A DNA stretch of 64,000 nucleotides, from positions 3,063-67,062 of the forward strand of contig JANYBV010000031.1 in NCBI GenBank assembly GCA_025360605.1. The letters run 5' to 3'. A model generated the notes under the pieces. It searched no databases. It was not told the origin of the DNA and worked only from the letters and a program-made list of their open reading frames with translations. A program made the position numbers and the translations under genes. This DNA comes from Alphaproteobacteria bacterium (GTDB taxonomy: Bacteria > Pseudomonadota > Alphaproteobacteria > Rickettsiales > SXRF01). How positions within the stretch are numbered: the first letter of the stretch is position 1; every line of letters starts with the position of its first letter. Shown here in pieces: positions 27,279-59,813 of the stretch.

Positions 27279-27905
27279 TTAAAAGGCGGAACCCGCAGCG
27301 GTACCATTGGTGGTGTAATGGTTGAAGGCGGGGGTTTTATAATCGCTTGCTTCTGTCATTTCCGGTGTATCGTCGTACATATTGATCAGAAGCATCGATA
27401 ATTTGTGTTGCAGGCTCAGCAAAAAGCCCACGCGGCTGTCATCCGAGGTGAAGCGGTACTGGCCATACGCATCGTCCACTGCCTTGTCGAGCGCTTTATG
27501 CGCATCGTGCAGGGCCGCAGGCATGGTCATCGGGTTATAGAGTTCGGAAAGGGTGGCGGCGGGATACTGAGCGCGTACTTTCAGCACGGTGAGCGCCCGT
27601 TCCTCAATAGCGCTGATATGACCCAGCGTATGGGCAATTGGCCATGGAAAGTTTTTGATGGTAGGACTGTGATGGGAGCGGTCATAGCAATTCACGCGGC
27701 CCGCCACACATTTAATCCATGCCATATACATGGACGAATTCAATACGCCGAACTGGAATAAATCGGACTCGGGGGAGACATACCAGTAATTACCCGCATT
27801 AATTTTGTTGGTAAACATCGTGGGTAAATATTCCCAATTTTCACATGTGGCGCGTGGGACTACTAAGTATGTTGCCGCAAAATCATTGTTATCAAAGCTG
27901 CTCAT
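27279..27905 (-). CDS. stand-alone C-terminal fragment of an MmeI-family (type IIL) restriction-modification enzyme; probable gene remnant
   Basis: 208 aa. 'YLVVPRATCENWEYLP', 'FGVLNSSMYMAWIKCVAGR...NFPWP' and 'LSELYNPMTMPAALHDAHKALDKAVDDAYG...RVGFLL' match the TRD/C-terminal end of ~900-aa MmeI-like enzymes as I remember them. The helicase-like, nuclease and methylase parts are absent. Has its own AGGAGG SD. Confidence 0.65.
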   Translation of the reverse strand: MSSFDNNDFAATYLVVPRATCENWEYLPTMFTNKINAGNYWYVSPESDLFQFGVLNSSMYMAWIKCVAGRVNCYDRSHHSPTIKNFPWPIAHTLGHISAIEERALTVLKVRAQYPAATLSELYNPMTMPAALHDAHKALDKAVDDAYGQYRFTSDDSRVGFLLSLQHKLSMLLINMYDDTPEMTEASDYKTPAFNHYTTNGTAAGSAF

Positions 27906-28403: not shown

Positions 28404-29627
28404 CTATTTATAGAGCTGGCAAGCCTTGTCGCACGCAGGAACGATTGTCCCGTAGTACAGCTTATATAATGAAGGTATCATGGATTGCACCGCTTCGTGG
28501 CCCCACTTCACTACCTGCTGCGGGACGCGTGCGACCGCTTCGATCACGATAATTGTTTCCTGTGCGAGCGGATCCGAGCGTGTGTAGGCATCTGCCTGCG
28601 GTGTCAGATTGAAGAGCATATCGCGGAAAAAAAGTGACAGTAATGTTGCCGGATAACGGTCCTTGTGGATTGTCAGCACGCCCTTCGCACCCTTGGCACG
28701 CATTAGCAGCTTAAAGACAGACCATGCGATTCGGCTTTTCAGCCACGTCAAACGCGAGCGCCAGTTGTGCAGTTTGTTTTCATGATAAAATTTCAGGTGG
28801 CGTTCCCATTCAACAATGGCGTTCAGCCCTAGTCGCTGGCTCAGCTGGTAGAGATGTTCCGCCCGTTTAACATCTTTGCGCCTGCCTTTTCCTGCTTTTT
28901 CACTGGGGGCGCGGCTCCAGTCGATGGCGGAATAACGGCCTGCCCACTGGCCTTTGTCATCACGGATCATATCGCCGTTATGGCCAGTTTCCTGACCGGC
29001 AATGACAATAAAGCGTGCGAGTGCCGGAAAGCCGTCGCCGCTATGGTTACGTTCATCACCTTCCAGAAACGGATGACCGCCGCAGGAGACATATACGGCA
29101 TTTTCTCCGCGCCCGAACGATTGCAGCCCGTTGCTTTCACCCACTTCCTGCCATGTTGCAATATCCATCACATCGCTGACGGTGTGCCCATAGGAGATAT
29201 AGATTTCTGCTTTTTCAAGATGGATAAGGCGGATGACCGGCAGCGCATTGCAGCTGACCAGTGCGCGTGCCATCATGATTTCCACTTTAGCAGATACAGG
29301 GCGAAGTTTTTTCAAGTTGGCGTGGATACGTTCTATATAATCATTGGCGATGGTGTTGGCATCTTGCTCACTATGGCGTTCCAGAAGCACTTTCATCAGG
29401 CGCTGGCGTGATTGCGCCAGCAATACAGGATCACTCATTTCGCGAAAACTGAAGGTCAGGTTGATGCGCTCTTTAGGCATCAGGAAGCGGGTGAAGTTAC
29501 TTTCATTGTCGGCATCAAGGCGCAACTTCCCTGAAGCCAGCAGCGCCTTCGCCAGCGTTTCCTGAGGCTTTTTAAGCTTCTTGTGCAGCCTTGGCTGTAC
29601 GTGCAGCACGTCATAGACGTTATACAT
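28404..29627 (-). CDS. hypothetical 407-aa protein (ORFan)
   Basis: Long ORF with coding-like composition. No motif I can assign. Confidence 0.7.
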   Translation of the reverse strand: MYNVYDVLHVQPRLHKKLKKPQETLAKALLASGKLRLDADNESNFTRFLMPKERINLTFSFREMSDPVLLAQSRQRLMKVLLERHSEQDANTIANDYIERIHANLKKLRPVSAKVEIMMARALVSCNALPVIRLIHLEKAEIYISYGHTVSDVMDIATWQEVGESNGLQSFGRGENAVYVSCGGHPFLEGDERNHSGDGFPALARFIVIAGQETGHNGDMIRDDKGQWAGRYSAIDWSRAPSEKAGKGRRKDVKRAEHLYQLSQRLGLNAIVEWERHLKFYHENKLHNWRSRLTWLKSRIAWSVFKLLMRAKGAKGVLTIHKDRYPATLLSLFFRDMLFNLTPQADAYTRSDPLAQETIIVIEAVARVPQQVVKWGHEAVQSMIPSLYKLYYGTIVPACDKACQLYK

Positions 29628-29863
29628 AATGAAAAGGATCAGGAATTGCTGTTTTTAAACTCTAAGCCCCAGCATACCATAGAAAAGTTAGTCTTTTTCT
29701 AATAATCGGCGGAGAAAAGCGTATTTAGGGAGGCAATATGCGAAAGCTTGATGATTTCTTAATAAATTGTTGTTTATCATCTGAAAATAGCCATTTAATG
29801 CCTTTGATTCAAAGATATTTCAATTCTGCGGTAAAAGGAGTATACTGAGCTTAAGGGTAGGAT

Positions 29864-30706
29864 ATGACAAAAAAAGCCCACGACGACAAAAATAATGCAG
29901 GTTTTACGCTGGTCGAACTATCGATCGTATTAGTGATCATAGGGCTCGTGGTTGGCGGTGTTCTTGTCGGCATCGACATGGTAAAGGCCGCTGAATTGCG
30001 CTCCACCATCTCGCAGGTAGAAAAATACAACTCCGCTGTAAACAGCTTCCGCGTTAAATACAACTCACTCCCTGGGGACATTTTGCAATCCTATGCATCC
30101 GCATTTGGATTGTTTACACTGACTACGGCACTGGGTGCGGGAGAGGGTGATGGTAGCGGGTTGATTGAAGGTGGAGCCGCAGGGATTACTGATCCTTCCG
30201 GCGAAACACTCGTATTCTGGCAACATTTATCCGATGCTAATTTAATTGACGGATCGTACGGCACGCTTGCTAACGGTACAATTTTAGCAAACACAGGTCT
30301 TGTGACGGCCAATAATACGGATGTTACAAAATCCCTGCCGCCATCCAAACTCACCCCAAGGCAGTATTTTATTGCGTATTCCGCCTCCGGATATAACTAC
30401 TATCAGTTACTTCCTATTTCTCAGGTATCTACACCGGCAGCCTACCTGTATGGAAATGCCGGTATTACTCCCGTACAGGCCTATAATATTGACGTTAAAC
30501 TGGATGACGGCACGCCCAATGGCGGGAGCGTAACGGCTAAAGGGATTACAGCAGTTAATATTAACGCTACCTGGCAGGCAGGCTCCACTCTTGCTAACTG
30601 TCTTTCCAACGGTGCGAACGCTACCGATCAGGCGGCCATCTACAATCGCGTACCAGCTACGGGTGGCAGCGATGCATCCTGTTCGGTGCGGTTCCGCTTT
30701 AACTAG
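29864..30706 (+). CDS. type IV pilin / pseudopilin-like protein, paralog B
   Basis: 'KNNAG|FTLVELSIVLVIIGLVVGG'. Colinear with 1123-1950 and shares the identical C-terminus 'SCSVRFRFN'. Confidence 0.8.
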   Translation: MTKKAHDDKNNAGFTLVELSIVLVIIGLVVGGVLVGIDMVKAAELRSTISQVEKYNSAVNSFRVKYNSLPGDILQSYASAFGLFTLTTALGAGEGDGSGLIEGGAAGITDPSGETLVFWQHLSDANLIDGSYGTLANGTILANTGLVTANNTDVTKSLPPSKLTPRQYFIAYSASGYNYYQLLPISQVSTPAAYLYGNAGITPVQAYNIDVKLDDGTPNGGSVTAKGITAVNINATWQAGSTLANCLSNGANATDQAAIYNRVPATGGSDASCSVRFRFN

Positions 30707-31710: not shown

Positions 31711-32451
31711 GTGGCTTTCATGCCCAATCTGTCTATGTTTTTTATGCCCCTTTCCTGTGTGGCAGTGATGCCAGCCTACAACGAAGAAGGAAATATTGAT
31801 CGGGTGGTCGCTGATTGGACCCGCGAGCTGGACCGGTTATTCGGTGATTCCTACCGTCTTGTGGTAATTAATGACGGTTCGCGTGATACCACGGGCAACC
31901 TGCTGGATACGCTCGCCGGAAAATACAGCAGACTCATAGTGCATCATCAGGTGAATCAGGGGCATGGAAATACCGTCATGAATGGCTATAAGCTCGCCGT
32001 GGAGATGGATACAGCCTACATTTTTCAGACCGATTCGGACGACCAGTTTGAAGCAACTGATTTTAGTAAGCTGTGGGACAGGCGGCACGAGTCTAAATTT
32101 ATTCTGGGATTCCGTCAGGTGCGTCATGACTCGGTGTACCGTTTGTGGCTTTCGAAAACCGCTGTTTTTCTGGTTATGACGCTTTTTTCTATCCGCCTTA
32201 AAGACAGCAATGTGCCCTATCGCCTCATGGAGCGGGAGTTTTTAAAACAGTTATTACCCATGGTACCGAAGGGGGCATTTGCCCCGAATATTTGCCTTTC
32301 TATTCTGGCCGCCCGTCACAAACAACCTTTGCTACATATTCCTGTGACCCACCGCCAGCGCGTCAGCGGCACGGCTATTGTCAGCAAGGCACTGATTAAA
32401 GGTTGCATCAAATCCCTAGGCGATTTATTCCGCTTACGTGCGACACTTTAG
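31711..32451 (+). CDS. family 2 glycosyltransferase (polyprenol-phosphate sugar synthase / GtrB-ArnC-like)
   Basis: 'VAVMPAYNEEGNI', 'LVVINDGSRDTT' and 'QTDSDDQ' (DxD). Start uncertain (GTG 31711; ATG 31720, 31735 or 31744). Confidence 0.8.
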   Translation: MAFMPNLSMFFMPLSCVAVMPAYNEEGNIDRVVADWTRELDRLFGDSYRLVVINDGSRDTTGNLLDTLAGKYSRLIVHHQVNQGHGNTVMNGYKLAVEMDTAYIFQTDSDDQFEATDFSKLWDRRHESKFILGFRQVRHDSVYRLWLSKTAVFLVMTLFSIRLKDSNVPYRLMEREFLKQLLPMVPKGAFAPNICLSILAARHKQPLLHIPVTHRQRVSGTAIVSKALIKGCIKSLGDLFRLRATL

Positions 32452-32462
32452 AAGGACCTCAC

Positions 32463-33968
32463 ATGAATTTATGGGATAGGATTAAAAGCCACGATTTTAC
32501 GGCATTTCGCAAAAAATCGTATAGATTCGGCCCTGGTTTGTTCATCGCGTTTTTAGTGTCGCTTGCCGTTTATAACACGACTATGAATAACGCCTATCAG
32601 TATGGCTCGACCTTCTTCGACTCCGCTGAATTTGCGACCGTGATCTGGCGCAGCGGTATCCGGCTTGATATGGGGCCTGCCTTTGCCGGTAGTATCTATT
32701 CCACGCATGCCTCTACCATCAACTACATTCCCAGCCTGTTCAGTCATCTGTGGACAGGGGATCGCATAGATTTTTATGCGTTGGTGTATTCGCTGGTGTA
32801 TGCGGCGATGGTCTATGCGGTATATATCGTCATATTACCGTTTCTGCCCCGCCGTTTTGGTCCATTGCTTGCGGCGCTGGGGATGATTTTATTCTTCTGC
32901 GGGCAGATTATGTATGACGGTGCATGGGAAATGCGCAGTGACTATATGTCGCCTTTATTTATGATACTTGCGTTCCGTTCGTGGCAAATGCGTAATTACA
33001 GTCTTGCGGTGTTATGGTTTACGCTTAACAATATGGTGCGTGAAGATCTCGGAATGATGATTATCGTTCCGGTAGCATTACTCGCCGGACTGCAATATTG
33101 GGAGGCCAGCCGTACCGATGCGGTGCTGGCTAGGGAGAGGCTGTTATGGGGGATACGCATTTGCGCTATCAGCTTTACGTGGGCAATAGTAACTAGCTAT
33201 GTTCAGAAGAACTATTTCCCGTTTTATGACCTGTTTCAGGATCAGTATTATGATAGCGCACACCCGTTCGCCCATCTAAGCCCTCAAATCATTTATGACC
33301 GCTTTGAGTATATTTTCCATTATGCAAGAGGGATCTGGCTGCCCATCCTGATGCTGGTTTTTCTGGGGCTATGTTGTAGGGATTGGCAACTGATCGTTGG
33401 TGCTGTCGCGTTTTTGCCCTACGGCATCGCGATGTTTTTTGCTAAAAATGAGATGTCGGCACAATTGGGAAGTTATAAGCCATTTGTATTTGCGCTCATG
33501 CTGGTGTGGCCGTGCATCATTGCGTACACGAAGCCTGTGGCACTCTATCGCCGCTATATCCTTATTCAGGCGGTGGTGTTGCTGTGTGGTGTAAGTAACA
33601 TCCGCGCCGGATTTATTGACAGTGCGTCACACCGCTGGTTATTGCAGCCTTTAACCTATAACGCGCAGCTTTATAGGGATTTCAGTGCGTATGAACTGAA
33701 AAAAGAGCAATCCTCCGGCGAACTTGCCACCCGCGTGTCACACAGTATTCTGGCGCTCTACCCGTACCAGTTTAAAGAATACTGGAATACGTGGATCGTT
33801 TCCCTGCAGCCTCAGGATGTAGGAAAAGTTGAAACGCTGATATGGTTTGAAGGTGATCGCGACCAGCCACTGATTGATAAAGTTCTTAAAAGCGGTGAAT
33901 TTACAGTAAAACCGGTCGATGGTACGAAAATACGCATTGCCCACCGTCATAATTCTCCGTGGGCTTAA
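32463..33968 (+). CDS. polytopic membrane protein, possible GT-C-type glycosyltransferase partner of the adjacent GT2
   Basis: 501 aa from ATG 32463, with at least 10 hydrophobic segments. Starts 11 nt after the GT2 stop. Function inferred from context only. Confidence 0.7.
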   Translation: MNLWDRIKSHDFTAFRKKSYRFGPGLFIAFLVSLAVYNTTMNNAYQYGSTFFDSAEFATVIWRSGIRLDMGPAFAGSIYSTHASTINYIPSLFSHLWTGDRIDFYALVYSLVYAAMVYAVYIVILPFLPRRFGPLLAALGMILFFCGQIMYDGAWEMRSDYMSPLFMILAFRSWQMRNYSLAVLWFTLNNMVREDLGMMIIVPVALLAGLQYWEASRTDAVLARERLLWGIRICAISFTWAIVTSYVQKNYFPFYDLFQDQYYDSAHPFAHLSPQIIYDRFEYIFHYARGIWLPILMLVFLGLCCRDWQLIVGAVAFLPYGIAMFFAKNEMSAQLGSYKPFVFALMLVWPCIIAYTKPVALYRRYILIQAVVLLCGVSNIRAGFIDSASHRWLLQPLTYNAQLYRDFSAYELKKEQSSGELATRVSHSILALYPYQFKEYWNTWIVSLQPQDVGKVETLIWFEGDRDQPLIDKVLKSGEFTVKPVDGTKIRIAHRHNSPWA

Positions 33969-33978
33969 CCTGCCGAAA

Positions 33979-34581
33979 TTATCTGAAGACATTGGGTGGT
34001 GGTGCTGGTTTTGGGGTGTTCGGCCTTGGCTTGGGTTGATACGGTAGTTGTTCAACTACCGTGTGGCGTACACCAAATTTATCAATATATTCGTTGCGTC
34101 GGTAAAAGGGTTCTGTGGGCTGGACGTTGTGCGGCATCACTTTTTGCTGTGGTTTGGACAAAACGGCTGGTTGTAACGCCACACTCTGCACGGGTTGATA
34201 TTTTTCCCACGGCGCACCAAACACATGGAATACCGCTGCCACCAGACATGCATTGAATAAGATCGCCAGTTGAACAATAAGCAATAACCTGCCGAGGCTC
34301 ATGGGTGTGTTAGTATTTTCTTTGGTAAATACACTCTGCGGTGCGGGTATAAAAAATGGTATGGCAGACGTCGGAGCATCCGTCGGCACTTCCTGAGGTG
34401 GCGCTTCGTGTTGTTTTGATTCCAGTACCGGAGCTGGTTTGGGGCTATCCTTCCGTTCGAGATCGGCATTGCTCAGACGGTCGTCAATGGTAACAAAGGA
34501 TAAATCGTTTGGCAGCTCCGCCTTCATCTGCTCGCGGTTTTCATTCAGTGGTGCAAAGGTAGAAAAATCGGGGAGCTTCAT
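33979..34581 (-). CDS. proline-rich single-pass membrane protein (TonB/TolA-like linker architecture)
   Basis: Start ATG 34581 forms an ATGA overlap with the upstream stop. Central TM 'LLLIVQLAILFNACLVAAVF'. Pro-rich tracts 'PKPAPVLESKQHEAPPQEVPTDAP' and 'PYQPKPRPNTPKPAPPP'. Confidence 0.65.
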   Translation of the reverse strand: MKLPDFSTFAPLNENREQMKAELPNDLSFVTIDDRLSNADLERKDSPKPAPVLESKQHEAPPQEVPTDAPTSAIPFFIPAPQSVFTKENTNTPMSLGRLLLIVQLAILFNACLVAAVFHVFGAPWEKYQPVQSVALQPAVLSKPQQKVMPHNVQPTEPFYRRNEYIDKFGVRHTVVEQLPYQPKPRPNTPKPAPPPNVFR

Positions 34582-35297
34582 TTTTTCAGCGTCTCCAGAA
34601 TAGTGGCTATCCATCCTTCGGCATCGGTGCGGATATGAAATTCAACGCGCTGCGAACGCACTGGATCTTCGGTTCCGTCCTTGTTCACAATCAGGTGCGA
34701 TGAGGAAAGACCGTTGGCTGTGACGTGTTTATGTAACCAGTCGGTTTGCGATTGCACTTCCGGTAACCCAAGCACGAAACGTAGTGTGCTGCGGGTGCGC
34801 GACTGTGATAGTTCCATATTTTTAAAATAGGCTTCTTCGGGCGCGGTGTTGGCAGCCCAGAAGCTCGATGTGTGTCCTTCGATACGCACTTCCTGAATCT
34901 GGCCATCATATTTGGGCGCAGTGATGATACGTGTATAGCGCGGGAAAAAATTATGCAGAATGTCCTGAAATTTCGGCTTCAGCTCATCCTTACCGGTATT
35001 GAAAAGGATTTCGGGGTCCTTAAAACGGAAGACCAGATCTTGCGTCAGCTCTGCGCCCCATACCGGCAGATCGTTTTTGAATTCGCGCATCAGCTCCGAG
35101 TATAATTCCAGACGCACCTGATCGTACAGCACCGCCACCTGCTTGGTTTTAAACTGCTGCACCTCCACCTTCATCATGAAGGCAATGGCAATCAGCATGA
35201 AGATCATCATCAACCCTGTCATCAGGTCGCTTAAGCTGATCCACTGGTCTTCCTGATTAGTCTGGTTAGGTGAGAAAGGATCTTCCTCGTCTGACAT
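34578..35297 (-). CDS. MotB/ZorB-like stator subunit with OmpA-like peptidoglycan-binding domain
   Basis: TM with the conserved-type Asp 'WISLSDLMTGLMMIFMLIA'. OmpA-like 'IRIEGHTSS', 'LSQSRTRSTLRFVL' and 'SQRVEFHI'. Confidence 0.85.
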   Translation of the reverse strand: MSDEEDPFSPNQTNQEDQWISLSDLMTGLMMIFMLIAIAFMMKVEVQQFKTKQVAVLYDQVRLELYSELMREFKNDLPVWGAELTQDLVFRFKDPEILFNTGKDELKPKFQDILHNFFPRYTRIITAPKYDGQIQEVRIEGHTSSFWAANTAPEEAYFKNMELSQSRTRSTLRFVLGLPEVQSQTDWLHKHVTANGLSSSHLIVNKDGTEDPVRSQRVEFHIRTDAEGWIATILETLKK

Positions 35298-35300
35298 AGG

Positions 35301-36467
35301 TTAGCCTGCCAGTTTGAGTACAGACTGTAACTTCTCGGTGATGGGGGCATAGTCGGCGACGAATTTCTGTGACAGCGCGGCGAGCTGACGGCCAAGGCTA
35401 TCCAAGGATTTGGTGAGTTCTTCCGACAGCGCGTTATCCAGCACCAGCACCTGTTCCTTGGTGTTTTCAATCTGGCGTTTGACGTTTAGGTTGAACTCTT
35501 CATTGCTGGTGCGCATGCCATCGGAAATCTGGCGGGTCATTTCCACAATTTTATGTTCGATCTCGGGCAGGCCGGTGGCCGCCGTGTTGACGAGCGAGGC
35601 AAGGCTGCGCAAGCCGCCTTCCATCTGCGTGCGCTGGGTTTCCAGTCCACCCAGCAATGCGGTGAGGCTCTGGGCTATCGTGTTGAATACCTCGGCGTTT
35701 TGCACCAGCACCTGATAACGCTCGGTGGCCACCGCCATGCTGCGGGTGGTGGTGCCTTGCTGGTCGATCATCTGGGTGATCTGCTGGGCGTAGTTCTGTT
35801 GCCACAATAGCATTTTTTCCAGACCGACATTCAGCAGTTTGAAATTCTCGCCGAACTGCTCGTTCAATTGGTTGTTGAAATCATGGATGACTTCGTTAAG
35901 GGCTTTCACGAGTGCGCGTGAGTTAGCCTCGGCGATGTTTTCATAGAAATGATCCATTGAGCGTCCCAGAACGGCGAAATTTTCGTTGGAATCCTGACGT
36001 GATAAACGGATCTGGCCATAGACCGAATTGTCGCCGCTGCCTGTCAGTGCCTGTTCTACCTGTGCCATCGAATGTTCGATGGCTTTCAGGCTGCTGGCGA
36101 GATCATTGATGGTAGCACCGGAGGATTTTTTTGCGGATACACTTTTGATACGCAGGATATCGCGTAGTTTAATCGTGAGCGCACAACCGATGCCGCAGGC
36201 TGATGCCCATACCGCAGTTTTGATGCCGTCAATGAGGGTGGGGACGCTTTTTTGCACGTCATTAGGATCGAAATCCAGCAACCCAATGGCGATACCGACG
36301 AACGTTCCCAAAATACCTAGTGTGGTGAGGAACGAGGGAGCTTTATTGACATTTTCAGGCGTGAAGCGGATATGGAAGAATAACGCGGATATGACAATCG
36401 CCTCAATAAACCACTTGGTTTCCTGATTCATTGTTAGAAGGATTTTATTTAAGAAAACCGGATCCAT
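35301..36467 (-). CDS. MotA/ExbB/TolQ-type proton-channel protein with ~270-aa coiled-coil tail (ZorA-like architecture)
   Basis: 'FLTTLGILGTFVGIAIGL' and 'IKTAVWASACGIGCALTI' channel helices, then continuous helical sequence to the C-terminus. ATG 36467 lies 7 nt after GGGGGAA; the track start is GTG 36473. Confidence 0.8.
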   Translation of the reverse strand: MDPVFLNKILLTMNQETKWFIEAIVISALFFHIRFTPENVNKAPSFLTTLGILGTFVGIAIGLLDFDPNDVQKSVPTLIDGIKTAVWASACGIGCALTIKLRDILRIKSVSAKKSSGATINDLASSLKAIEHSMAQVEQALTGSGDNSVYGQIRLSRQDSNENFAVLGRSMDHFYENIAEANSRALVKALNEVIHDFNNQLNEQFGENFKLLNVGLEKMLLWQQNYAQQITQMIDQQGTTTRSMAVATERYQVLVQNAEVFNTIAQSLTALLGGLETQRTQMEGGLRSLASLVNTAATGLPEIEHKIVEMTRQISDGMRTSNEEFNLNVKRQIENTKEQVLVLDNALSEELTKSLDSLGRQLAALSQKFVADYAPITEKLQSVLKLAG

Positions 36468-36571
36468 AGACACTTCCCCCTGTCCATTTTAACTCATAAT
36501 CCAGTTAAATGTTAGGTAAATGATGCGGCTGAAGTGCAGAAAACAACATATTTTGACGCGGGAAGAGGGGC

Positions 36572-39500
36572 TTATCCCATGACAACACCACCACTTTGGG
36601 CAAGTGGCTTGCCCGTGGTGAAGGATTGTGAAGGCAGGGAGGACAACGAGGCGAAGCTGAGGTTCGGCATTGTAGTCGGGGCGGCGGCAAATTTCATGCT
36701 ATCGCCGGTGCCATTACCCACTTCATTGCTGATTTTGTCTTTAATCCCCGGAGGTATAGGGATGGACATGCCGCCGATATTGGGCTGATTAGGGAATATC
36801 TGATCAAAGTCCCTTCGCACCGCATCTTTAACGGCACCCCTGACAACATTCTTTTTCTCATCTTCACTCAGGTCGGCGAAGCTCTTTTTCTCCGTACCAT
36901 ATTGCCATTTAGGGTCGGCGCAATCGACGATGGCATCGGCAATGGTTTTCTCCAGCACATCCTGCCGGACATTGGCTGCTGTCCACTGATCGACCTTTGC
37001 GGCTCTTTTTTCAGGAGACACGACGTGATCGGTCACATCCATAAAATCATCGGCCAACGGTTTAGCATGCCTGCCGAGCCATTTGCCAAATCTGGTAGGG
37101 ATTTTTTCAGGTGCGAGGCGGCCATGGGCGGCAAGATCTTTCGCCCAGTCTTTAAAGCTTTCAATACCATCATGCGCTTGTTTCTTTGCCATCACTTTGG
37201 CCAGCGCCATGTTTTCGCGTGCTTTCTGGGCTTTTGCTGCTTCATCCACCGGTTTGCCAGACATTTCATCAGTGAAAGCTTTGGCCATACCGTCGGCTAA
37301 TGATTGGCGTGTTCCGGCATCAGGAACCACGTCTTTCAGCTTGTCATCCACTGCCTTACGGATTTCCTCTTCGGTAGGAGGTTTAGCACCTTTAACGACC
37401 AGAGGAGCAATGCCTTCCGCTGCTTTGTCGGCAATGAGTTTGAGTCTGTCTTTTTGTACGCCCATAGTCAGTGATGCCATGCCACGTGTGGTCGGGTCAT
37501 TCAGGCCTGTTTCAATCTTATCGGCGATGAATTTTTGTGCTACTGCCGTCTGTGCTTTGGTGAATTGATCGGCCTTTGCAGGATCTTTTACTTTGCCCTT
37601 GTCATCCAGCAATTTTTTATCAGGAGGCAGTGTCTGATCCACCATCTGTAATGCCACGCCTTCGGCAAGTGCATTGTTCATCTGGGCTTCTTTGCTATCG
37701 GGAGCCAGCCCTTTGTTCAGGCGGTCGGCGATCTGTTTTTTGGCGGCTTCAAATGCCGCTACAGGATCCATGTTCGGATCCTTCAGGGCTAACGTAGCGC
37801 CATCAAACGTAAACACTCCGCTGCCAGTGGCATCGGGAGTGATGACACCGCTACCGATAATTGCTGTAGCCAATTCCTTCAGTTTGTCTTTTTTCTTGTC
37901 ACCTTTAAGGCCAGTCATAGCCTCGAATATTTTGCCTTCAGGGGTCAGGACAGGTTGGGTAGGAGTTGATCCTGTCTGGTCACCAAACTGCGCCAGTAAC
38001 CCTTTCTGGGTCTGCTCATAGGCGGCATATAAAATATTGTCCGGTGACGATACGTCATTGGACGATGGTGGTGGTGATCCGGTCGGACCGCCCGCAGGGC
38101 CAGCAGGACCACCAGCAGGACCCGCAGGGCCTGAAGGGCCGACAGGAACATCTGGTGCCGCCGCTCCGGTTGAAGGAGCTGCTGCACCTGACTGTGCTTT
38201 TTTATCGGCATCAATCATTGCCTGCGTGATGATGCCATCACCCACGATAAGCTTGCGCATTTCCGGTTTTTTGAACAATTCGGTGAAGCCGGTGCTAAGG
38301 GCAGTGACCAATGTAGGGGTAGGATATTCTGCTACCGGCGCCCCCACTTTTTTCAGCATTGCCCGTGATTCTTCAAGGAACTTCGAATCATCAAGCATTT
38401 TTGTGAGAATGGCTTTGGAAAGGTCTTTTTCCTGACCGGCTTCCATCAAGCGCGGGTTTGCAGCTATCACCTGCGTTGCCATCTCAGCAAATTTTGCCTT
38501 TGCCCGTTCGACATAAGGATCGTTCGCTTCAATTTTAACGGGAGGTTTCTGCTTGGCACCAAATTGATTCAATTTAGCAACAAACTGATCACGCATGGTG
38601 CTTGCAACGGCGGCTTTGGTATCTGGGTCTGTGTACGCCATCTTGGTATCAAAGCTACCGTCAATGGCTGCTTGCAGCTTGGTGCTCACGTCAGCGGAAA
38701 CCACAGGTTTATCGGCAATGACCGGAGCAGGAGCCGGAGCGTTCGGAGAACTCCTAGCGGCTTTATTGGCATCACCGAGCATGGTGTAATTGGTTTTGAC
38801 ATACCCATCCATCTGGCCGACGATGGCCTTAATGTGGTCATCGCTCATTTTAAAGGAGAAAAACCCACTTTTGTTGTTTGCGGTTACAAGGGCTTTTTGG
38901 GTTTCTTCCTGCAGCAATTTGCTGAGTTCAGGTTGAGTCAATGTGCTGAGGGGCTTTCCATCTTTCAGCTTATCAAGCAGCACAGGGTCATTGCCATCAT
39001 ATTTGTAATTCGGATTAGCCACCGTCATAGCGACCGCATTGGCCACGGTATCGGTGATTTTTTTTGCATCTTGTGGAGAGGCCTTAAAACCCGCCATTGC
39101 ACGGGCAGTATCGATGAAAGAGCCGGAAGGTTCTGCGCCCACAGTTGCGGTTACCACCTTGCTCAACTGTGTTTGCACGCTGCTCATGATATCGGCTTGT
39201 GCTTTTTCTGAAACAACCCGCGTATACACCTGTCCGGTATCGAGCTTATCCAAAACGTCCTTGTCTTTAGGGCCTTCGGGTTTCACGCCCGCAGCGACCA
39301 GTGCCTTCTCCTTAACACCATCAACCGCAGATTCGATTGCACCAGGGGTCAACCATTTCATAGGTTTCCCATTGGCAATGCTTTGTTCCCTCAACTGGTT
39401 CAGGCCCTCTCTCAGATTACCCCCTGCTGCCTCACCGGTGCGCTCTGCCGCAATTTCCTTGACGCGGCCAAAGAAATCACCAAACCCGATTTTGCCCGAG

Positions 39501-39949
39501 AACAAATCGCCGATGGCTTCAAAGAACGAGGTGATCAGGGTGAATAAGCTGGTACCCATAACGGTGATTGGGCCGGTGGCCTTTTTGACCGAGCGGGCGG
39601 CGATGTTGCCCACTTCATCGAGTTCGTCAAGCGTGGGCACCAATTCGTTAGGTAAGCCACCAAACTGTTCGACGAATTTTTTCTTTTCGTCTTCATCCAT
39701 GCTGCTAGCAAGCTCTTCCAGCGTGATGGGCATGTTTTTGCCATCAGACATACTCAGCGAAATTTGACGATTATGTCCTATGGCTTCATCTGCCATCGCA
39801 AGAAGTTGCTTACTGTTTGGCTCTTTGAAGTTGCGATCTATTTCCCGAATCTTGGCAAGATTTTGCTTAATTAAAACCTTAAGCTTCTTCGCTACTTCTA
39901 GCTTAGCGCTATCTCTTACACCTTGTTTTATCTCTTGCTCGGTTGGCAT
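36572..39949 (-). CDS. giant (1125 aa) Lys/Ala/Asp/Pro-rich hypothetical protein
   Basis: Single 3.4-kb ORF. One hydrophobic segment near residue 140 (GPITVMGTSLFTLITSFFEAIG), a short collagen-like tract, and degenerate 'K.IADK/R' helical repeats. No enzymatic motif. Confidence 0.8.
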   Translation of the reverse strand: MPTEQEIKQGVRDSAKLEVAKKLKVLIKQNLAKIREIDRNFKEPNSKQLLAMADEAIGHNRQISLSMSDGKNMPITLEELASSMDEDEKKKFVEQFGGLPNELVPTLDELDEVGNIAARSVKKATGPITVMGTSLFTLITSFFEAIGDLFSGKIGFGDFFGRVKEIAAERTGEAAGGNLREGLNQLREQSIANGKPMKWLTPGAIESAVDGVKEKALVAAGVKPEGPKDKDVLDKLDTGQVYTRVVSEKAQADIMSSVQTQLSKVVTATVGAEPSGSFIDTARAMAGFKASPQDAKKITDTVANAVAMTVANPNYKYDGNDPVLLDKLKDGKPLSTLTQPELSKLLQEETQKALVTANNKSGFFSFKMSDDHIKAIVGQMDGYVKTNYTMLGDANKAARSSPNAPAPAPVIADKPVVSADVSTKLQAAIDGSFDTKMAYTDPDTKAAVASTMRDQFVAKLNQFGAKQKPPVKIEANDPYVERAKAKFAEMATQVIAANPRLMEAGQEKDLSKAILTKMLDDSKFLEESRAMLKKVGAPVAEYPTPTLVTALSTGFTELFKKPEMRKLIVGDGIITQAMIDADKKAQSGAAAPSTGAAAPDVPVGPSGPAGPAGGPAGPAGGPTGSPPPSSNDVSSPDNILYAAYEQTQKGLLAQFGDQTGSTPTQPVLTPEGKIFEAMTGLKGDKKKDKLKELATAIIGSGVITPDATGSGVFTFDGATLALKDPNMDPVAAFEAAKKQIADRLNKGLAPDSKEAQMNNALAEGVALQMVDQTLPPDKKLLDDKGKVKDPAKADQFTKAQTAVAQKFIADKIETGLNDPTTRGMASLTMGVQKDRLKLIADKAAEGIAPLVVKGAKPPTEEEIRKAVDDKLKDVVPDAGTRQSLADGMAKAFTDEMSGKPVDEAAKAQKARENMALAKVMAKKQAHDGIESFKDWAKDLAAHGRLAPEKIPTRFGKWLGRHAKPLADDFMDVTDHVVSPEKRAAKVDQWTAANVRQDVLEKTIADAIVDCADPKWQYGTEKKSFADLSEDEKKNVVRGAVKDAVRRDFDQIFPNQPNIGGMSIPIPPGIKDKISNEVGNGTGDSMKFAAAPTTMPNLSFASLSSLPSQSFTTGKPLAQSGGVVMG
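38067..38150 (-). repeat. short collagen-like GP(A/S/T) tract inside the giant ORF
   Basis: Encodes 'VGPSGPAGPAGGPAGPAGGPTGSPPPS'. GC-rich triplet periodicity is visible in the DNA. Confidence 0.7.
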
Positions 39950-40409: not shown

Positions 40410-41204
40410 ATGGCTCAGGCTATGGTAACCAAAGACGAAATTGATGAACGGGTTGAGCGTCTTAATGACAGCAAATGGCAGAGCGACCGTGTTCTCAAAG
40501 ATGACGATTTTCTTCCTATCATTCGTCCAGATGAGCGAATAGCCGATAAGGATCTGCGTGGTGTGCGGATGTCAGCCACGGGTTTCGAGGCTGAAACTGG
40601 TGATACACCAGCGGTGTATTTTGACCTTAGGCATGTGGATTTAAGCGATCACAAAATCTCTGAAGCAAAGCTTGGTCACGTTGAAATAGGGATGGCGGCA
40701 CGTGCCGATTTCAGCAACTCGGATATTGATGATATCCGTCTGACGGGTGACGCAAAACAGGCCCTGTTTATTGGTACGAAAGCCCAGAAAATCTATATCG
40801 ACGATGGGGCGGATGTTCGTGATGCGGTGATGATCGGGCTGGAGACCACGCATTGGGGCGAGATGCAGCGCAAAGCGAAAGGCGTTGCAATTACCACTGC
40901 GGAAGAACTGGAAAATAAAATCGACCGTTTTTCTTCCGAACAACAACTGCAGATGCTGGAAGCTTTCGGTGAAGCCAAAGCCAGAACCGAAGCGGTGATT
41001 GCGGTTATGGAACCCGAGAAAGACACGGATTTTAGTGGTGCGCGTGAACATAAACGTCGGATACGCTTAAAAGAAACGGATAAGCTTGAGGCGTATGAAG
41101 CGGCAATCAAAATCTGTGAAACTGCGTTAGTGCCAGACGGTTTGGGCAATGCTGCCGCCACCGCTCTCAGGTCACTTCCGGTGGATCGTGAACTAAGGAA
41201 ATAA
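40410..41204 (+). CDS. hypothetical 264-aa protein with a short pentapeptide-repeat-like run
   Basis: GGGGGA SD upstream. Consecutive pentads 'FDLRH VDLSD HKISE AKLGH VEIGM', then an acidic helical C-terminal half. Confidence 0.65.
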   Translation: MAQAMVTKDEIDERVERLNDSKWQSDRVLKDDDFLPIIRPDERIADKDLRGVRMSATGFEAETGDTPAVYFDLRHVDLSDHKISEAKLGHVEIGMAARADFSNSDIDDIRLTGDAKQALFIGTKAQKIYIDDGADVRDAVMIGLETTHWGEMQRKAKGVAITTAEELENKIDRFSSEQQLQMLEAFGEAKARTEAVIAVMEPEKDTDFSGAREHKRRIRLKETDKLEAYEAAIKICETALVPDGLGNAAATALRSLPVDRELRK

Positions 41205-41207
41205 GCC

Positions 41208-41492
41208 ATGCAACCGGCCGATCACAACCCATCGTTCAGTGATAGGGTGATTCGTTCGGGAATTTCCTGTATCCATTGGGTGGCGACGCGTGATGGTAAA
41301 AACCGCGAGTGCTATTACTTTATTATGTGTACTCCGCAAAAACTGAAAATGCTCAAGCAAATCAAAGAAGGTATTTTTGCAATCAAGGACTATGGCATTA
41401 TTGTTGCCAGTGGCTTTGGCTCAGTGCCCAGCGACAAGGTGATAGCCATGATGAAGGATAAATACGGCTTCGATTGCACGAAGCTGGAGTAG
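41208..41492 (+). CDS. small hypothetical protein, 'DYG' family paralog 2
   Basis: 94 aa. 'FAIKDYGIIVASGFGSVPSDKV'. AGGAAA SD lies inside the end of the upstream gene, with a 3-nt gap. Confidence 0.6.
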   Translation: MQPADHNPSFSDRVIRSGISCIHWVATRDGKNRECYYFIMCTPQKLKMLKQIKEGIFAIKDYGIIVASGFGSVPSDKVIAMMKDKYGFDCTKLE

Positions 41493-41514: not shown

Positions 41515-41589
41515 TGGAGCGGGCGAAGGGATTCGAACCCTCGACATCAACCTTGGCAAGGTTGCACTCTTCCCCTGAGTTACGCCCGC
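41515..41589 (-). tRNA. tRNA-Gly (anticodon GCC), CCA encoded
   Basis: The reverse complement GCGGGCGTAACTCAGGGGAAGAGTGCAACCTTGCCAAGGTTGATGTCGAGGGTTCGAATCCCTTCGCCCGCTCCA folds as a cloverleaf: 7-bp acceptor stem, anticodon loop TTGCCAA, T-loop TTCGAAT. Confidence 0.95.

Positions 41590-58181: not shown

Positions 58182-59813
<1,632 letters not shown>

Follow-up and report, generated by a model that had tools for sequence, protein, structure and literature searches.

What does a Zorya-type motor drive when the gene in its effector position encodes no nuclease? This question is raised by a locus in a 64,000-nucleotide stretch of DNA from an alphaproteobacterium of the order Rickettsiales (assembly GCA_025360605.1, contig JANYBV010000031.1, positions 3,063 to 67,062 of the forward strand), which is called the window throughout. 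Four minus-strand open reading frames (ORFs) follow one another between positions 39949 and 33979 of the window: a giant gene, zorA, zorB and a fourth gene, which occupies the place of zorE. An earlier interpretation made from the letters alone, referred to here as the sequence-only reading, had given the same ORFs, coordinates and junctions, all of which can be read directly in the DNA, and the sequence motifs that it quoted are present. It went on to propose that the four genes form an undescribed ion-driven envelope module.

The analysis reported here leads to a different answer. The last three genes would constitute a module derived from the type II Zorya system, in which the N-terminus of the effector ZorE has been kept as the element that couples to the ZorAB motor and in which the target of the output would be the membrane or envelope instead of DNA. 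This reading is drawn from sequence comparison and is given a probability of roughly 0.6.

A type II Zorya motor

The two middle genes are zorA (35301–36467, minus strand; 388 residues counted from the ATG, with a GTG two codons upstream also open) and zorB (34578–35297, minus strand; 239 residues). The affinity to ZorA and ZorB that the sequence-only reading had suggested is borne out by the PADLOC and Protein Data Bank (PDB) searches. The 388-residue protein matches the PADLOC model ZorA2 (PDLC00637) with E=1.6e-113 and the 239-residue protein matches ZorB2 (PDLC00641) with E=6.5e-93, whereas the PADLOC models for the type I and type III subunits score far lower. In the PDB, both proteins align with entry 8VVI, which is the type II ZorA5B2 complex of Sulfuricurvum kujiense (PMC11890865). 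Here, residues 29–387 of ZorA align with the 378-residue chain 8vvi_F (E=2.4e-64), and ZorB aligns over nearly its full length with chain 8vvi_A (E=3.3e-55). The type II equivalogs are also the best NCBIfam matches of the two proteins, yet the ZorA2 match (8.8e-44) reaches 150 bits against a curated cut-off of 700 and the ZorB2 match 239.7 bits against a cut-off of 400. The NCBIfam ZorA2 model is longer than the window protein, with 550 versus 388 positions.

The layout of both subunits can be followed in the alignments. ZorA comprises a short MotA/ExbB-like transmembrane (TM) core, spanning approximately residues 20–105, and behind it some 280 residues of helical cytoplasmic tail. The sequence-only reading had noted about 270 continuous helical residues after the channel helices; these correspond to the tail of type II ZorA. 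Two motifs in this tail, NEQFGENF and the C-terminal LSxKFxxDYxPxTxKL, are invariant when the ZorAs of the variant described below are aligned with those of ZorE-bearing systems. ZorB comprises an N-terminal TM helix bearing the ion-coupling Asp and an OmpA-like, peptidoglycan-binding domain, and the motifs IEGHTSS, LSQxRTR and SQRVEF are retained. Its residue D24 (codon 35226–35228) is aligned to the critical D21 of S. kujiense ZorB. In that protein, D21 packs against a Ser/Thr ring of ZorA, and the equivalent Asp is essential in defence (PMC11890865).

By these alignments, the middle pair is a genuine type II Zorya ZorAB and no new stator family, so that the pair loses its standing as an undescribed motor. 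ZorA and ZorB should form a 5:2 ion-driven motor in the inner membrane. A flagellar, Tol or Ton stator was considered and rejected on family scores: the Pfam model MotA_ExbB gives 17.7 bits, which is under its cut-off of 22.9, and the best NCBIfam matches of the MotB/MotS type give 20–35 bits versus cut-offs of 259–300. Zorya I or III was also rejected. The PADLOC scans covered 20 proteins of the window and, apart from the type II ZorAB, found no Zorya component, be it ZorC, ZorD, ZorF or ZorG; the models for ZorA1 and ZorB1 gave far lower scores than those for type II.

The remodelled ZorE slot

Set beside the definition of a type II Zorya system, the locus has the ZorA and the ZorB and lacks the ZorE nuclease. 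ZorE itself is divided into an N-terminal DUF8245 domain, with a zinc site near H90, and an HNHc domain (2026 preprint, PMC13192584). In the window, its slot is filled by the fourth gene (33979–34581, minus strand), which encodes 200 residues from the start MKLPDF. An in-frame ATG upstream would make the protein 211 residues long, but the homologues begin at MKLPDF. To place this gene, 80 named loci with a type II-like ZorA were collected and the gene directly after zorB was taken from each; the locus in the window is labelled WIN and the compared loci carry labels such as L001, L003 and L008. The canonical ZorEs found in this position have 253–294 residues (one has 382), 7–11 Cys, 7–17 His and no hydrophobic segment, and they start with MKLPDF..(F/L)N.LR..MGA. 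The fourth protein and its relatives begin with MKLPDFSTFAPLNENREQMKAELPNDLSF...LSNADLE, which matches the canonical start. Past the N-terminus, they have 0–1 Cys, 9–19% Pro (15% in the window protein) and a strong TM segment.

The likeness to ZorE is confined to the N-terminus, where it is well above background. A profile restricted to the N-terminal 48 residues of 36 canonical ZorEs finds the fourth ORF with E=4.9e-9 (31.8 bits), while the best decoy among 594 six-frame segments of the window has E=0.46. In tblastn, 20 of 45 canonical ZorEs match the window starting exactly at position 34581, and they do so only via their residues 1 to approximately 20–54. The full ZorE profile covers positions 1–42 of the ORF and nothing further, and the orthologue in L001 gives a weak match to the PADLOC ZorE profile at positions 3–45 only. 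The retained element is the ZorE-type N-terminal motif MKLPDFSTFAPLNENREQMKAELPNDLSFVTIDDRLSNADLE (34447–34581, minus strand), which makes up residues 1–45 and is the candidate for coupling to ZorAB. Conservation in canonical ZorEs is as high over residues 1–25 (2.45 bits per column) as over the HNH core (2.51), and the HNH motif is located in the last 90 or so residues.

What follows the motif is not ZorE. The ZorE body (DUF8245/HNH) was sought in the fourth gene and across the 64-kilobase (kb) window and was not found, and window scans revealed no helicase or nuclease domain that could serve as a partner of ZorAB. The fourth protein has no match in Pfam, PADLOC, NCBIfam or PHROGs family scans, and only 6 homologues were found among 5.8 billion proteins. 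It retains only the segment that lies ahead of the DUF8245 and HNHc domains. Judged by its start and its position, the fourth gene is a remodelled zorE in the ZorE slot, with the first 45 or so residues kept. The sequence-only reading had taken the protein for an anchor resembling TonB, TolA or GltG, and the ZorE N-terminus that was detected by the profile contradicts this assignment. It had also stated that no known partner gene is adjacent, which is correct for helicase and nuclease domains and incorrect in that the fourth gene is itself a ZorE derivative.

The description of the fourth protein as single-pass and Pro-rich was accurate. From the N-terminus, it consists of the ZorE motif (residues 1–45), a Pro-rich linker (46–95), a TM helix (96–121), a Pro/Gln-rich stretch, a hairpin (160–178) and a Pro-rich tail. 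The TM helix (34219–34296, minus strand) is modelled by AlphaFold2 (AF2) with a predicted local distance difference test (pLDDT) score of 75–91; it coincides with the Kyte–Doolittle hydrophobicity maximum of 2.6 and is followed by a conserved FGAPW. The C-terminal beta-hairpin motif YRRNEYIDKFGVRHTVVEQ (34048–34104, minus strand) would be periplasmic, and AF2 places its strands at residues 160–166 and 172–178 with pLDDT of about 72–75. The TM, FGAPW and hairpin motifs are invariant in 7 homologues, including Y160, R162, E164, Y165, D167, G170, H173, T174 and E177 of the hairpin, and the helix and the hairpin are the parts of the AF2 model with the best confidence. More distant members (L003, L011, L012 and L096) follow the same plan with 225–425 residues, the ORF of L011 ending at the end of its contig. 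Looser C-terminal motifs, RVxxR(V/H)(Y/T)-like, are seen in L003, L012 and L096. In all four, a strongly basic cluster directly precedes the TM segment, which points to an N-in topology. The ZorE motif would then be cytoplasmic, on the same side of the membrane as the ZorA tail.

The relationships of the variant were examined in a neighbour-joining tree of concatenated ZorA and ZorB (74 loci, 604 columns, 100 bootstraps). The eight TM/Pro-rich loci in the tree (WIN, L008, L007, L001, L003, L011, L012 and L014) are separated by one bipartition in 100 of 100 bootstraps, and this group lies within the ZorE-bearing type II systems. For the loci sampled, a single origin of the TM/Pro-rich variant is shown by this tree. 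Its nearest neighbours are L013, L056 and L016, which have a normal ZorE of 288–289 residues; the sister relation has a bootstrap value of 53/100. The variant loci, given as eleven, are the eight in the tree together with L096, which was assigned by sequence, and L090–L092, which were assigned by gene layout. The records of the variant clade are labelled as Rickettsiales or Alphaproteobacteria metagenome-assembled genomes (MAGs). Within the clade, the ZorAs have diverged to about 50% identity and the architecture is kept throughout, and the core that is conserved across ZorA homologues of falling identity consists of ZorA, ZorB and the third gene of the module. The module is located beside glyQS-ppdK in L003, L011, L012 and L014, and beside DUF1003/tRNA-Gly in WIN, L008 and L001.

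The genes of the module are under purifying selection. In the comparison of WIN with L008, the ratio of non-synonymous to synonymous substitution rates (dN/dS) is 0.026 for zorA, 0.018 for zorB, 0.14 for the fourth gene and 0.26 for the giant gene, and the ranges are 0.02–0.03 for ZorAB and 0.14–0.25 for the fourth gene. With these ratios against a close relative, all four ORFs are real genes.

Other departures from the canonical effector were seen among the compared loci. Short ZorE-slot proteins of approximately 163–210 residues keep the N-terminal and middle (DUF8245-type) region of ZorE and have lost the HNH module entirely. They are found in L005 (11937–12509), L015, L017–L020, L023, L024, L029 and L081/L086, in Steroidobacteraceae, Nevskiaceae and other Gammaproteobacteria MAGs, and also in Natronospirillum and Salinispirillum; the protein of L005 is a ZorE by PADLOC (E=1.4e-31). 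In L085, a Pseudomonadota MAG, the third protein has 168 residues and a ZorE-type N-terminus, all the rest being Pro/Ala-rich low-complexity sequence, and it has no Cys and no TM segment. Since the short ZorEs that lack HNH form a separate clade, nuclease-less effector slots arose more than once. Both these forms and the Pro/Ala-rich form also keep the N-terminus, so that the 45 or so N-terminal residues are what stays constant in the effector slot of type II systems. A canonical Zorya II was found in L097 (1–9739), where the ZorA is 52% identical to that of the window and the 284-residue ZorE contains DUF8245. This system lies on an integrative element with an integrase, AlpA and a DUF3987 primase-like gene, and its zorB is called as two ORFs of 171 and 78 residues.

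Output of the module and rival explanations

In Zorya II, the ZorA tail, ion flow and peptidoglycan binding are all required, and upon infection ZorAB directs ZorE, a soluble nickase, to the membrane (PMC11890865). No description of the interface between ZorAB and ZorE was found in the Zorya literature searched, and the literature searches turned up no TM/Pro-rich or nuclease-less variant of the ZorE slot. For the locus in the window, the following mechanism is proposed. ZorB would be anchored to peptidoglycan, with the tail of the ZorA pentamer projecting into the cytoplasm. The product of the ZorE slot would be a bitopic membrane protein that holds the 45 or so residues of the ZorE N-terminus on the cytoplasmic side, and this segment would be the element by which ZorAB engages its partner. 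The output of the motor would then pass to a partner that is permanently tethered to the membrane and free of nuclease, so that the motor would act on the membrane or periplasm instead of on DNA, for example by perturbing the membrane or by signalling across it. Four points of this picture are inferred from the comparisons above: that the N-terminus docks to ZorAB, which way the fourth protein is oriented in the membrane, that the output is directed at the envelope, and that the module acts against phages.

A more detailed version of this mechanism is speculative and is considered unlikely. Here, the rotating ZorA tail would engage the ZorE-type peptide of a protein that a Pro-rich tether anchors in the inner membrane, and activation of the motor would become a mechanical or conformational signal that reaches the periplasm in a TonB-like manner. 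The device could be a membrane-directed effector of abortive infection or a domesticated instrument of envelope or host interaction, possibly linked to the hypervariable giant protein in the nearest sub-clade, and the 45 or so residues of ZorE could be a universal module for docking to ZorAB.

The compared loci are informative on the recruitment and activation of effectors by ZorAB. Taken together, the TM/Pro-rich clade, the short ZorEs that lack HNH and the Pro/Ala-rich form resemble a set of deletions made by nature, in which the ZorE N-terminus stands out as the probable coupling element. The TM/Pro-rich variant also shows that the slot for the type II effector is modular and is able to hold a nuclease-free membrane protein. 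As the slot contains no nuclease, annotation pipelines that use PADLOC-type rules would call such a locus incomplete or miss it. Motors of the Zorya type may have outputs besides DNA damage, including in Rickettsiales-like bacteria.

The sequence-only reading treated all four genes as one unit, which makes the giant gene (36572–39949, minus strand; 1125 residues) part of the question. Its protein is rich in Ala, Lys and Asp, with one moderately hydrophobic and highly conserved stretch at approximately residues 125–150, and it has no match in Pfam, NCBIfam, PADLOC, PHROGs or a PDB sequence search. The AF2 model, made with a 5-sequence alignment, is almost all helix (mean pLDDT 64, predicted template modelling score 0.34), and Foldseek found nothing for it in the PDB at E<=0.001. 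There are 5 close homologues among 5.8 billion proteins. The wider family has 40 representatives of 227–1964 residues among 1.84 billion proteins, and these have mainly the N-terminal 400 or so residues in common. This region, which includes the stretch ATGPxTVMGTSLFTLITSFFEAIGDLFSGK, defines a small orphan family, and no Pfam domain was found in nine distant or large members that were scanned.

The giant gene stands upstream of zorA only in the nearest sub-clade, in WIN, L008, L007, L001 and L090–L093, and it is absent from the variant loci L003, L011, L012, L014 and L096. In these, zorA is preceded by extracytoplasmic function (ECF) sigma factor/VWA genes (L003), by divergent glyQ/glyS/ppdK (L011, L012 and L014) or by a response regulator (L096). 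In L009, a homologue of the N-terminal half of the giant protein (314–2563; 39% identity, E=2e-89) is found in the syntenic place with no ZorAB; a 1051-residue protein of the same locus was considered as a second relative and was rejected as unrelated. In L094, the giant ORF is split into 863 and 230 residues and ZorAB is intact. The gene also changes faster than those around it. The giant proteins of WIN and L008 share 69% amino acid identity although the ZorAs are 99% identical, and the synonymous rate (dS) of the giant gene is 0.89 versus about 0.29 in neighbouring genes, a threefold excess that suggests allelic replacement or diversifying selection. In the core of the gene (approximately 37750–38850), nucleotide identity to L008 falls to 0.50–0.58 with indels, against a background of 90–98%. 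This core contains a collagen-like (GPA)n tract (38082–38154, minus strand), which is a repeat with a 9-nucleotide period.

Between the giant gene and zorA is a spacer of 104 nucleotides (36468–36571, minus strand), in which a purine-rich, Shine–Dalgarno-like GGGGGAAG lies ahead of the zorA start. At the next junctions, zorA and zorB are 3 nucleotides apart, and zorB and the fourth gene overlap by ATGA. The spacer contains a single weak promoter-like match (36515–36486), and no terminator-like site was found in it by a scan that is at chance level overall. As the promoter and terminator counts do not exceed what chance would give (7 where 7.6 are expected, and 4 where 8.5 are), these scans are uninformative on whether the giant gene and zorA are co-transcribed. 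The absence of the giant gene from deeper variant loci and its presence without ZorAB mark it as a neighbour and not as a conserved part of the module: the giant protein is a fast-diversifying, lineage-specific neighbour that the module does not require.

These findings bear on the idea that a new MotAB-like stator has two integral partners, the giant protein and the Pro-rich anchor, and that the four genes form an ion-driven envelope module. The genes share one strand and tight spacing, their order is conserved in WIN, L008, L007, L001 and L090–L093, and no terminator-like site was found in the spacer. Against this, the stator belongs to type II ZorAB, the giant gene is missing from five deeper variant loci and can be split while ZorAB stays intact, its N-terminal half occurs where there is no ZorAB, and its threefold dS suggests a separate history. 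The four-gene module is therefore very unlikely. Somewhat less credit still is given to the proposal that a Zorya II is simply decaying, with its nuclease lost, the fourth ORF a meaningless remnant of zorE and pseudogenisation under way. The HNH and DUF8245 body is indeed missing, a restriction-modification gene nearby survives only as a truncated remnant, and the Pro-rich parts of the fourth protein evolve fast. However, the dN/dS values given above are low for ZorAB and for the fourth gene alike, there are no frameshifts or internal stops, the TM, FGAPW and hairpin motifs do not vary among the 7 homologues, and the same architecture extends across a clade whose ZorAs are as little as 50% identical. 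A decayed pseudogene remnant was rejected on the dN/dS values and the conserved motifs. The sequence-only reading had allowed for a degraded Zorya if relatives carried the same pair beside canonical components. The same ZorAB pair does stand beside a canonical ZorE in L013, L016, L056, L097 and L098, but "degraded" is the wrong word because the remodelled gene is conserved across the clade and is under purifying selection.

A further rival view is that in this Rickettsiales-like lineage a Zorya II motor has been co-opted from defence for a task in the envelope or in host interaction, with the Pro-rich protein as a TonB/TolA-like transducer of force or signal across the inner membrane and, in the nearest sub-clade, the giant protein as a possible client or partner. 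The loss of the nuclease, the very strong purifying selection on ZorAB and the stable, apparently vertical inheritance at conserved positions, with ZorA identities of 50–100%, all agree with such a change of use, and the inheritance pattern favours domestication. The extended Pro-rich segments that flank a single TM helix and the small C-terminal beta motif are TonB/TolA-like, and the neighbours, a glycosyltransferase family 2 (GT2) and multi-TM pair and a pilin-like gene, are not typical defence genes. On the other hand, the partner matches no Pfam family and contains neither TonB_C nor TolA, and its TM helix is central instead of N-terminal, with approximately 100–190 residues in the cytoplasm. 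The type IIG remnant in the same block and the canonical relatives on mobile elements, such as L097, fit an origin in defence. Co-option is judged unlikely on this balance.

The Zorya-derived, envelope-directed module remains the preferred reading, and several points weigh against it. The NCBIfam scores of ZorA and ZorB lie under the curated cut-offs. In the AF2 model, residues 1–45 of the fourth protein are disordered on their own and of low confidence. In canonical ZorE, residues of both the DUF8245 and the HNHc domain are required for defence (PMC13192584), and a nuclease-free module may give no defence or may depend on a nuclease gene in another part of the genome. Moreover, within this clade the module seems to have been passed on vertically and to have kept its places on the chromosome, which is atypical of defence islands. 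Finally, the giant gene lies on the same strand 104 nucleotides upstream in all close relatives, and a functional link between the giant protein and ZorAB that is specific to this sub-clade is possible.

Surroundings of the locus and known systems

The locus lies in a block at approximately 26–42 kb of the window with a G+C content of 0.45–0.51, compared with 0.52–0.58 in the flanks. The sequence-only reading had placed the operon in an accessory block next to tRNA-Gly, and a tRNA-Gly(GCC) is indeed found at 41515–41589. Apart from this tRNA and the coding (GPA)n tract, repeat and Rfam scans of the locus yielded nothing. Two ORFs of 264 and 94 residues (40410–41492, plus strand) without a family match separate the giant gene from the tRNA and are divergent from the operon; they are present in L008 and L090 and are locally more diverged (0.83–0.87 identity).

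On the other side, a GT2 glycosyltransferase of 246 residues and an overlapping 521-residue multi-TM protein without a family match (31711–33968, plus strand) converge on the Zorya-like operon. This pair keeps its place beside the operon in L001, L007 and L008 and may be a polyprenyl-phosphate sugar synthase with a membrane glycosyltransferase. Further along (28404–30706), a DUF2748 protein (E=1e-101) adjoins a 280-residue prepilin-type protein with an N-methylation motif, the middle part of whose gene is locally more diverged from L008 (identity 0.86–0.87). The Pfam family DUF2748 is mainly rickettsial. A 208-residue ORF (27279–27905, minus strand) matches type IIG (MmeI-like) restriction-methyltransferase profiles over their last 160 or so positions only (PADLOC E=6e-39). 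Within the same low-G+C block, this ORF is what remains of a truncated restriction-modification gene, and it is conserved as a fragment in L007, L008 and L009. Elsewhere in the window, residues 26–87 of a 537-residue ORF (58182–59795, minus strand) match a PADLOC homing-endonuclease profile (E=3e-8).

Among known motors, flagellar MotAB and PomAB share with the window pair a distant homology of the channel helices and of the OmpA-like domain, and an Asp in the TM helix of the B subunit. In contrast to flagellar MotAB, the cytoplasmic domain that interacts with FliG is replaced by the helical tail of ZorA. The likeness to TonB and TolA is one of architecture: a single-pass protein with long, presumably extended Pro-rich segments and a small C-terminal periplasmic element is encoded beside a 5:2 motor of the MotAB family. 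No resemblance to TonB or TolA is seen in sequence or profile, however. The TM helix is central (96–121 of 200 residues), and the cytoplasmic part of approximately 100–190 residues carries the ZorE motif. Unlike in the Ton and Tol systems, the motor is a ZorAB with a long cytoplasmic tail, and genes for a TonB-dependent receptor and for Pal are not adjacent.

The closest comparisons are found within Zorya itself. As in the short-ZorE loci (such as L005, L018 and L020), a type II ZorAB is followed by a protein that lacks HNH and has a ZorE N-terminus; unlike the window variant, the short ZorEs keep a soluble DUF8245 middle domain with 3–5 Cys, have no TM segment and belong to a separate clade. 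Canonical Zorya II, as known from S. kujiense (8VVI) and Escherichia coli, differs in that its third protein has the DUF8245 zinc-site region and the HNHc nuclease, in place of which the window has a bitopic, Pro-rich membrane protein. With that system, the locus shares the gene order, in which zorA and zorB are followed by a third gene with an ATGA overlap to zorB; a ZorA whose short TM core carries a tail of about 280 residues; a ZorB with the critical Asp and a peptidoglycan-binding domain; and a third protein that begins with the ZorE motif MKLPDF..LN.LR..M.

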